A stretch of 64,000 bases of DNA from NCBI RefSeq assembly GCF_054482595.1, contig NZ_CM137008.1; one strand, written 5' to 3'. Numbering within the stretch: position 1 is the first letter of the stretch; each line of letters opens with the position of its first letter. Under the pieces are notes generated by a model. The model saw only the letters and a list, made by a program, of their open reading frames with translations, did no database searches and was not told where the DNA came from. Below are positions 37,838-40,086 of this stretch, piece by piece. Made by a program: the position numbers and the translations under genes.

Positions 37838-38167
37838 ATGGAAACTACCAAGCCTTCATTCCAGGACGTACTGGAATTTGTTCGTCTGTTCCGTCGTAAG
37901 AACAAACTGCAACGTGAAATTCAGGACGTTGAGAAAAAGATCCGTGACAACCAGAAGCGCGTCCTGTTGCTGGACAACCTGAGCGATTACATCAAGCCAG
38001 GGATGAGCGTTGAAGCAATCCAGGGCATCATCGCCAGCATGAAAGGTGACTATGAAGATCGCGTTGACGATTACATCATCAAAAATGCCGAGCTCTCCAA
38101 AGAACGCCGCGATATCTCCAAAAAGCTGAAAGCTATGGGCGAAATGAAAAACGGCGAAGCGAAGTAA
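37838..38167 (+). CDS. yeeX: UPF0265 protein YeeX
   Basis: 109 aa from [41 protein letters not shown]; start trimmed from ORF 37772. Confidence 0.88.
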
Positions 38168-38267
38168 TTCCTGTTTTATTCAATGAGGGTTGCCCGGCAA
38201 CCCTCAGTGCTCATTGATTCTTATCTGTGTATCACCGTCATCATTCTCATCTGAGAACCTATCGAAA

Positions 38268-38480
38268 TTAGCGACAGCCTTCTTCTGTATGCAGCAAGGC
38301 AAAAACTTCTGTAACTCCATTGTTATTAACCGCACTGGTTACTAACACGTTGTGCGCTCCAGCTTCCCGTAACCAACATTTCACCAAAGATGTTTGTTCC
38401 ATACTGGCTAAATCTGCTTTGGTTACTACTCCAATGACCGGGTGATTCATGGCCCGGTAGGGCGTTTTTACCTCTAATTC
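38268..38480 (-). pseudogene. yoeF-like fragment (C-terminal remnant of a possible small GTPase; family assignment weak)
   Basis: C-terminal about 65 codons (HPVIGVVTKADLASMEQTSLVKCWLREAGAHNVLVTSAVNNNGVTEVFALL) look like the end of a small GTPase; the N-terminal part of the 118-aa ORF is just the antisense of the IS66 remnant. Confidence 0.35.
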
Positions 38481-38482
38481 CT

Positions 38483-38650
38483 GCTTCAGCGCTGAGATTC
38501 CTGCTTGTTGCCGGAAAAGCAGGCACCTGCCGTCTGAACGGTATCGATCCGGAAGCGTATCTGCGCCATATTCTGAGCATACTGCCGGAATGGCCCTCCA
38601 ACCGTGTTGACGAACTCCTGCCATGGAACGTAGTTCTCACCAATAAATAA
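38483..38650 (+). mobile_element. IS66-family transposase C-terminal remnant
   Basis: Plus-strand frame encodes ...FLLVAGKAGTCRLNGIDPEAYLRHILSILPEWPSNRVDELLPWNVVLTNK*, the conserved C-terminus of IS66 TnpC with an internal deletion; no upstream transposase body. Confidence 0.5.
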
Positions 38651-39064
38651 GCGTCAATACGGTGCTCCGTTGACGCTTACTTTAATCCGTTTTCTGAGCT
38701 TAGATTTTTCTGTTCCTACCCAGACCGTGGATTTGGAATTCATTTTTTGTCAGGTCAATGCTAATCGTTAAAACGGCCATAACGCACCTCCACTGGAAGG
38801 TTTATCAGTAATATCCTACCGTTGCTTCATGGTCGGGGCGTCCATTCCATTATTATCGGTTTTCCTTTCTGTTTATAAATGAAAACGCCAGCTGTATTCA
38901 GGCTGGCGTCAGGGGAAATGAAGCCTGTTGAGTGAGATTCACCGGTTCTGGTGCAGAAGCTGCAGATGGCGCAGGGTAAGGACATCTTCTCTTGCCTGCT
39001 TAATACAGGACAACAGTGCTGTTTCTGTGGTTAATGGCACTATACCCTGCATCACTGCATTGTC

Positions 39065-39259
39065 TTACAGCAACTGGTGAGGGCTGGCATAAGTTGCCGG
39101 TGTTTCGGTAGAGTCACGGTCATCCACCACGCGGAGTGAATAACCGTTTTCAGCGGCCTTATTAATCAGTTCAGTGATATTAACACCATCAATGTCAACG
39201 ACAATGTGCCCCATATCCAGCGCCTGTACGTTAACGCTGTCGGCTTCCAGTGTCATCAT
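39065..39259 (-). CDS. yeeW: YeeW-like small protein
   Basis: 64 aa; start ATG overlaps the cbtA-frame stop (ATGA); last gene of the CP4-44-type backbone. Confidence 0.55.
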   Translation of the reverse strand: MMTLEADSVNVQALDMGHIVVDIDGVNITELINKAAENGYSLRVVDDRDSTETPATYASPHQLL

Positions 39260-39629
39260 TTCGCCTCCGGATACTTACCCAGGGTAATGTTATTTACCGT
39301 TCTGTAATTGTCGCGGGTCATCAGGCCGGTCGCCCTGCGAGCCCGGAGGATATCGATGCTGTTTATTAACTGAGAGCGGGTACAGGCGCTGAATCCCGGC
39401 TGGTCGGTAGCACCAGCGCGTATTTTTCCACGAGAAAGTTCACCGCATCACACAGTGAAATGCCTGCCTCAATATGCTGCTCAATCACACGTTCATCGGC
39501 AAAAGGTGTGTCATTCTGTGTGAGGCCATAGTGCTGGTCCAGCAGTCGGGACAGCAGTATCTGCCAGATTTCAACAGGAGACGGGCGAGAACTGGCCGCC
39601 TGCCCGGGTAATACAGGTAATGTTTTCAT
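39256..39629 (-). pseudogene. cbtA: CbtA (YeeV) cytoskeleton-binding type IV toxin, disrupted by a -1 frameshift
   Basis: N-terminus [36 protein letters not shown]...FLVEKYALV reads for 73 codons and stops at codon 88 (39366). The next frame encodes [50 protein letters not shown] with no stops, ending in the ATGA overlap with yeeW; consistent with a 1-bp deletion near 39409-39411. Confidence 0.75.
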
Positions 39630-39717: not shown

Positions 39718-40086
39718 TTAATTTTTCATTTCGGGCGTCGGATAAACAGCCAGATAAACGTAACCACAACTGCTGAGGGTATCGGCTTTGCAGGTCAGCC
39801 CTTTTGCATACAGCGTGACGGTATGCTGATGGCGGGGATTCAGTTCACCGCTGGTGAGCATGAGTTCCAGTTGTTTCATCAGCAGCGGAAAGGCCTGGTC
39901 CAGGTGGTACGCATCTGCATCGCTGAACAGGCCTCTGATACCGGCGCGGTCGGCAAGGTAATGCAACCGGTTACCCTCCTGCACCAGACGTGCCCCGAAA
40001 CAGGGCGTCACGGTGCAGGGCAGCCCCCACCAGGGGCGGTCGTGATTGTCGTCGGGAAGTGTTGTCCCGGGGAGTGTGTCTGACAC
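39718..40086 (-). CDS. cbeA: CbeA (YeeU) type IV antitoxin
   Basis: 122 aa (MSDTLPGTTLPDDNHDRPWWGLPCTVTPCFGARLVQEGNRLHYLADRAG); immediately upstream of cbtA. Confidence 0.85.
   Translation of the reverse strand: MSDTLPGTTLPDDNHDRPWWGLPCTVTPCFGARLVQEGNRLHYLADRAGIRGLFSDADAYHLDQAFPLLMKQLELMLTSGELNPRHQHTVTLYAKGLTCKADTLSSCGYVYLAVYPTPEMKN

Follow-up and report, generated by a model that had tools for sequence, protein, structure and literature searches.

At the right-hand side of a CP4-44-type island in Escherichia coli, several short gene fragments lie between the core gene tmaR (yeeX) and the first recognisable island genes. They raise the question of where the core chromosome ends and the island begins, and of what the fragments once were. 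We addressed this in a window of 64,000 nucleotides (contig NZ_CM137008.1, assembly GCF_054482595.1), to which all positions refer unless another record is named. The initial annotation, made from the sequence alone, had read positions 38268–38650 as the right edge of the island beside yeeX, marked by the scar of an old IS66 insertion and by a fragment of a small GTPase. Our analysis leads to a different anatomy. With a probability of about 0.88, which covers the proposed origin as well, the interval represents a stack of four truncated, non-functional sequences at the junction of the core chromosome and the CP4-44-type island. Judged from the alignments described below, the order from tmaR inward is a 3' stub of pduV, a stub of a DUF4942 gene, the end of an IS66 element and the end of an IS110-family element (Table 1). 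The interval named at the outset takes in the first two of these and the transposase tail of the third, and omits the terminal inverted repeat of the IS66 element and the whole IS110-family relic.

PGAP gene calls were read from the record of E. coli ATCC 11775 (NZ_CP033092.2), which is 100% identical around 38268–38650. On the core side, the TmaR protein (WP_000450409.1) is annotated identically in every strain inspected. On the island side, a DUF957 fragment and a short yeeW are the first recognisable genes inward of the relics, and DNA homology to paralogous islands picks up again at about 38852. According to PGAP and to comparison with the island at tRNA-Ile, the window has the CP4-44-type order of antirestriction gene, radC/yeeS, yeeT, cbeA, cbtA, yeeW, DUF957 and DUF4942, with DUF957 and DUF4942 present as fragments only. 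The yeeW product in the window is 64 residues long and comprises only the N-terminal domain of DUF5983, compared with 163 residues in the tRNA-Ile island. Of the toxin–antitoxin pair, the CbtA toxin gene (39256–39629, minus strand) carries a frameshift in this strain according to the annotation, and the CbeA antitoxin gene (39718–40086) is intact.

Table 1. Sequence features at the right-hand end of the island, in order of position in the window.
Feature	Position	Strand	Basis or remark
tmaR (yeeX), core gene flanking the relics	37840–38167	+	PGAP; convergent with the pduV stub
pduV 3' stub, codons 88–147 and stop of the 147-aa PduV	38268–38450	-	Read as native chromosomal DNA; homologous part of K-12 yoeF
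Mechanical 118-aa ORF, equal to K-12 'YoeF'	38268–38624	-	ORF list and translation
71-bp stub of DUF4942 (codons ~38–61), last gene of the island	38451–38521	-	In-frame fusion to pduV codon 88
IS66-family transposase (TnpC) tail, last 42 codons and stop	38522–38650	+	Equal to K-12 pseudogene yoeD
IS66 right terminal 30 bp, including the terminal inverted repeat ending ...GACGCTTAC	38651–38680	+	ISEc47 match
171-bp transposase-proximal end of a degenerate 1370-bp IS110-family element	38681–38851	-	H19 alignment
DUF957 fragment, inward island gene	38939–39031	-	PGAP
Short yeeW	39065–39259	-	PGAP; Pfam DUF5983_N, E = 2e-29

The fragment next to tmaR had been recognised from the beginning as the C-terminus of a small GTPase on the opposite strand, and profile searches bear this out. 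Residues 57–112 of the 118-aa ORF match positions 86–142 of the 143-position Pfam profile PduV-EutP (PF10662) with an E-value of 2.1e-11. NCBIfam TIGR02528 agrees (E = 6.8e-10), with a score under its full-length cutoff, and PGAP calls a 60-aa EutP/PduV protein for the stub. Among named proteins, the nearest relatives are the PduV of Citrobacter, Salmonella and E. coli, and E. coli has a 147-aa form. In the pdu+ strains E2348/69 and 98208, an intact 147-aa pduV (WP_001189429.1 in E2348/69) occupies this very place, convergent to tmaR and separated from its stop codon by 100 bp, as the last gene of a complete operon (pduO, pduP, pduQ, pduS, pduT, pduU, pduV). The stub shares this position, orientation and 100-bp spacing. 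It is identical to the 3' end of the intact E2348/69 gene in 180 of 183 nt, all three differences being non-synonymous, and the spacer is identical in 99 of 100 positions. Intact PduV opens with MQRMMLIGPSQCGKTS; the stub sets in at residue 88 and thus has neither the P-loop (GxxxxGKT) nor the rest of the N-terminal 87 residues needed for a full GTPase fold; what remains is residues 88–147, and the rest of the pdu operon is gone. A PDB sequence search with intact PduV returned no solved relative.

The origin of the fragment is illuminated by two strains that have no island. D8 and EC16 both keep the GTPase fragment, directly between tmaR and cobU; D8 retains 98 codons, which are plainly PduV-like. 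Similarity of the window to D8, like that to pduV, stops at 38450. Since the stub is found in strains devoid of the island, it is not an island feature, and we regard it as native pduV at its original chromosomal position. The stubs differ in length, with 294 nt in D8 (L003 5119–5415), 183 nt in the window and about 177 nt in EC16 (L004 5119–5295). This indicates at least three independent pdu deletions, all of which stopped short of the tmaR flank.

The pduV stub is joined in frame to a 71-bp sequence which we assign to DUF4942. Taken alone, the 23-residue piece in the window matches DUF4942 with a non-significant E-value of 0.022. The assignment is made because the window (38100–38521) is collinear with strain H19 (L008 5951–6372; 98.3% identity). 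In H19, DJH_137urine, A65EC and 120899, the 71-bp sequence runs 112 bp further to an ATG, which results in a 121-aa ORF, and H19 keeps all 61 N-terminal DUF4942 codons. Over its first 57–59 residues, the H19 ORF shares 61% identity (E = 5e-18) with the N-terminus of the full DUF4942 protein from the paralogous CP4-like island at tRNA-Ile (strain IGC_RcoliRes_1.1). In that island, the order is cbtA, a yeeW-like gene, DUF957 and, as the last gene, DUF4942. The stub occupies the same position downstream of cbtA, yeeW and DUF957. In contrast to the full gene, it comprises only about 24 codons and none of the Pfam DUF4942 domain (residues 87–275).

We also considered that the 71 bp and the sequence that follows them in A65EC and H19 might be the 3' end of the IS110 element. 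This was rejected, as the uninterrupted paralogous island shows the DUF4942 N-terminus there; in the alignment to that island, the IS110 element begins only beyond the DUF4942 ATG. PGAP annotates the 121-aa product as 'EutP/PduV family microcompartment system protein' in H19 (L008 6119–6484) and at loci L002, L009, L010, L012 and L016; in the underlying gene, 61 codons of DUF4942 are joined in frame to 60 codons of PduV.

The comparisons place the true right edge of the island at 38450|38451, the DUF4942'::pduV' fusion. The annotated right edge of CP4-44 in K-12 (2078748) corresponds to window position 38451. The edge had thus been sought within the correct interval; the GTPase fragment, which had been counted as part of it, lies outside the island as judged from D8 and EC16. 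Because the edge is a fusion of two genes, the original island terminus would have been deleted and there is no attachment-site end. Neither an attachment-site repeat nor a tRNA marks the edge, and the PGAP annotation has no tRNA between tmaR and the island. At the junction we noted a TTCAT microhomology, which is consistent with an illegitimate deletion; the precise crossover point and the 5 bp are approximate, because the DUF4942 parent used in the comparison is a paralogue with 76% DNA identity.

The third segment is the IS66 piece. Its plus-strand translation is GTCRLNGIDPEAYLRHILSILPEWPSNRVDELLPWNVVLTNK followed by the stop, 43 codons in all. It matches Pfam DDE_Tnp_IS66_C (PF13817) with an E-value of 8.9e-16 (58 bits against a cutoff of 30; profile positions 4–39 of 39), so that the TnpC-like C-terminus described initially is confirmed; like the GTPase match, this is far beyond chance. 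PGAP annotates a pseudogene at 38513–38650 as 'transposase domain-containing protein, missing N-terminus'. At the DNA level, 38522–38680 corresponds to positions 2382–2540 of the 2540-bp ISEc47 with 98.1% identity (96.9% to ISEc23). The match to ISEc47 stops exactly at the tip of the inverted repeat, and the tip ...GACGCTTAC at 38680 is identical to that of complete ISEc47 and ISEc23 copies. The reference copy of ISEc47, from plasmid p204446_92, is 2540 bp long with GTAAGCG...CGCTTAC ends and is flanked by an 8-bp target duplication (CAGTGCCG).

The likeness to ISEc47 and ISEc23 is thus confined to the terminal 159 bp, with the C-terminal domain of the transposase and the inverted-repeat tip. 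Unlike these elements, the window has no tnpA, no tnpB, no catalytic DDE core, no left inverted repeat and no 8-bp target duplication. We consider the piece a relic incapable of transposition. An internal deletion upstream of the tail had been suggested. The piece is instead a 5' truncation, with 159 of 2540 bp (6%) left, because the sequence to the left of 38522 is the relic of a different gene and not a second IS66 segment. Further IS66 similarity was found nowhere in the 64-kb window, either by blastn with the whole 2540-bp element or by tblastn with TnpA, TnpB and TnpC. A 9-residue upstream extension of the tblastn match (38495–38521) was dismissed as a chance similarity, this stretch being DUF4942-derived DNA that is identical in strains without IS66. 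In strain AVS0969 (L005 5519–8091), a further layer of nesting is present: the IS66 relic has itself been hit by the IS21-family element ISEc12, in the region of its terminal inverted repeat, and the window sequence 38656–38667 flanks the insert on both sides.

The sequence that adjoins the IS66 tip is the fourth segment. Positions 38681–38851 are 99.4% identical to positions 1200–1370 of an element in H19 (L008 6485–7854). They contain a 71-bp leader and the first 26 codons of the transposase, followed by a stop, and the AT core dinucleotide follows at 38852–38853. Exactly where the window has the 159-bp IS66 piece, H19 and DJH_137urine have 1311 bp, and on either side they are collinear with the window (38681–39300 corresponds to L008 7684–8315 in H19). 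PGAP labels the copy in both strains as an IS110 family (RNA-guided) transposase pseudogene. The C-terminal ORF of the H19 copy matches Pfam Transposase_20 (PF02371; E = 8.7e-11); the 26-codon N-terminal piece in the window has no Pfam match, and the domain is seen in the collinear H19 copy.

The ends of the element were set by comparison with the uninterrupted paralogous island at tRNA-Ile. The 1370-bp insert sits at GAC[AT]TATCGG, directly upstream of the DUF4942 ATG, with AT on both sides. In the full H19 copy, inverted repeats (ATGGTCGCCCC / ATGGACGCCCC) lie sub-terminally, and the transposase is followed on its 3' side by a non-coding stretch of about 270 bp. In Transposase_20, sub-terminal repeats, flanking AT and the long 3' non-coding region, the H19 copy resembles the IS1111-like subgroup of the IS110 family. 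It differs from known members of the family in that the element carries many stops and frameshifts, being degenerate wherever examined, and is found in E. coli at this single locus only; the window keeps no more than 171 bp. When the H19 locus was scanned against Rfam, neither a guide RNA nor another RNA family matched at E ≤ 1, and the non-coding end that would be relevant to a guide (bridge/seek) RNA is deleted in the window.

Taken at face value, the nested alignments mean that IS66 went into a degenerate IS110-family element and now lies 71 bp from the edge, on the island side. The old IS66 scar proposed initially is thus real and only its placement at the boundary has to be revised. If IS66 had inserted at the boundary itself and decayed by internal deletion, with the GTPase fragment as part of the island edge, one would understand why the two pieces lie so close together beside yeeX and why the K-12 literature puts yoeF among the CP4-44 genes. 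However, the GTPase fragment is kept in island-free strains, and pdu+ strains have intact pduV at the same site. In addition, IS66 is flanked by the DUF4942 stub on the left and by the IS110 end on the right, both of them inside the island, and the second IS66 segment that an internal deletion would leave is absent from the window. We therefore give an insertion at the boundary very little credence.

The same locus in K-12 carries the annotated genes yoeD and yoeF. Alignment to yoeF, which had been named as a check on the initial reading, identified the locus directly: K-12 is 98.8% identical to the window over 38100–39300, with a few substitutions and no structural difference. The yoeD gene (b4642; 2078549–2078677) corresponds to 38522–38650, and yoeF (b4538; 2078575–2078931) is the same 357-nt CDS as the mechanical ORF of the window. 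Residues 1–34 of this 118-aa ORF are antisense to the IS66 tail, with the start codon an ATG on that antisense strand; residues 35–58 come from the DUF4942 stub and residues 59–118 from the pduV stub. The overlap of IS66 and GTPase sequences that had been reported holds for the mechanical ORF alone, whereas the homologous segments (38268–38450 and 38522–38680) are 71 bp apart. PGAP calls only the 60-aa pduV part. By its composition, the yoeF ORF is a three-part chimera arising from accidental read-through of unrelated pieces, and we would not expect it to have a function.

There are arguments for a genuine protein gene, either as the 118-aa ORF or as a 60-aa C-terminal PduV peptide. K-12 RefSeq lists a CDS for a 'putative uncharacterized protein YoeF', the 60-aa version has a PGAP protein accession, and the stub occurs in 5410 of 5426 genomes. 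The 60-codon stub keeps its ATG and is free of stops and frameshifts in all of the nine stubs examined except that of EC16. However, the N-terminus varies with the strain: the ORF has 118 aa where it is antisense to IS66 and 121 or 141 aa where it begins in DUF4942, D8 has 98 codons without a start, and EC16 has a start-less 177 nt. Absence of the P-loop and of the N-terminal 87 residues, and the non-synonymous nature of all three differences in the window, also speak against a functional product, and the near-universal presence of the stub is equally explained by its abutting the conserved 3' flank of tmaR. A functional yoeF is thus highly improbable in our view. Synonymous and non-synonymous counts in ten strains (3–14 differences) are too small for conclusions on selection; an intact gene shows two synonymous and three non-synonymous differences.

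A related idea is that the stub is kept for a reason: it might protect tmaR as a 3' buffer, supply terminator context for that gene, or be expressed as a micro-protein from the PduV C-terminus. It arises because at least three deletions stop short of the tmaR flank and because the 60-codon ORF is so widely intact. We would attach hardly any weight to it. Expression of a small peptide from the stub is possible, and the low divergence makes the open frame uninformative in this respect.

The distribution of the relics was determined in 5426 complete E. coli genomes. Besides the nearly ubiquitous pduV stub, at least 80% of the 297-nt D8-type pduV fragment, indicating a pdu+ or D8-like state, was detected in 845 genomes. 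The DUF4942'::pduV' junction is present in 4180 genomes; the 71-bp sequence 38451–38521 occurs once in each of these, always at this locus. The IS66-relic state was found in 3177 genomes, K-12, O157:H7 and B2 strains included, and the near-complete IS110 state in about 586. Given this wide distribution and the differing lengths of the pduV stub, the relic stack is either old or has been widely spread by recombination.

Recombination bears on how the individual strain came to have the junction. It is conceivable, if rather unlikely, that the strain received the stub when homologous recombination replaced its tmaR flank with that of a lineage whose junction was already fused. Strains of phylogroups A, B2 and E share the junction, B2 also includes pdu+ and island-free strains, and such patchiness is typical of recombination in this region. 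Repeated gain and loss of pdu, which points in the same direction, has been inferred for ST372 (PMC9997745). However, an imported junction would alter only the route of the strain to the junction and not the identity of the pieces, and even then a deletion must once have created the fusion in a genome containing pduV as well as the island.

From the segments and junctions shown by the alignments, we infer the following order and mechanism of events. In the ancestral lineage, pdu would have been located beside tmaR, and the island came to adjoin pdu. The rest of DUF4942, the island end and the pdu operon may then have been lost in an illegitimate deletion that reached from codon ~61 of DUF4942 to codon 88 of pduV. 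Before or after this deletion, the IS110-family element would have entered at its GAC[AT]TATCGG site. IS66 could then have entered the IS110 transposase gene at codon ~33, with TTTAATCC at 38681–38688 as target. A last deletion would have taken 2381 bp of IS66 together with 1311 bp to its left, of which 1199 bp belonged to IS110 and 112 bp to the start of DUF4942'. This order is based on parsimony over a handful of genomes rather than on a phylogeny, and recombination between lineages could mix the states.

If this history is correct, the island displaced the pdu operon in a lineage from which most E. coli would descend or with which they would have recombined. The right edge of the CP4-44-type island is pinned to the DUF4942'::pduV' fusion rather than to an attachment site. 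In the K-12 annotation, yoeF counts as a CP4-44 protein, whereas the part of it that has homologues is native pduV, and neither yoeD nor yoeF is given a product or origin. Curated E. coli databases have described both as C-terminal pseudogene fragments. The components themselves (IS66, IS110, EutP/PduV, DUF4942 and CP4-like islands) are already known, and the locus is annotated in K-12 and by PGAP. Still listed among the uncharacterised CP4-44 y-genes (PMC11551758), yoeF otherwise appears in the literature as a marker between yeeA and cobU, and the CP4-44 site is labelled 'cobU-yeeX'. The literature searched for yoeF, pduV and CP4-44 contained gene lists and the site label only, and nowhere an account of where yoeF or yoeD came from. 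The anatomy resolved here refines the annotation to a modest extent, which is useful for reconstructing the gain and loss of pdu in E. coli and for curation of the y-ome; otherwise it is annotation hygiene and unsurprising.

Two observations concern the surroundings of the stack. Between the convergent stop codons of tmaR and pduV, a perfect inverted repeat with a 10-bp stem (GAGGGTTGCC..GGCAACCCTC) is located at 38181–38209 and is conserved in all strains compared. A promoter and terminator scan of 38100–39100 gave no terminator-like site and promoter-like sites at chance level; the inverted repeat is not called by this simple terminator scan because it has no T-run. The opposite end of the island, near cobU, is located beyond the end of the window (L006 20070–20430 and 22488–22828; record 2006869–2009627). 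It contains a second C-terminal fragment of an IS66 transposase, IS4 fragments and the stub of a truncated cobalamin-biosynthesis (cbi) gene, which is the cobU-side counterpart of the pduV stub.
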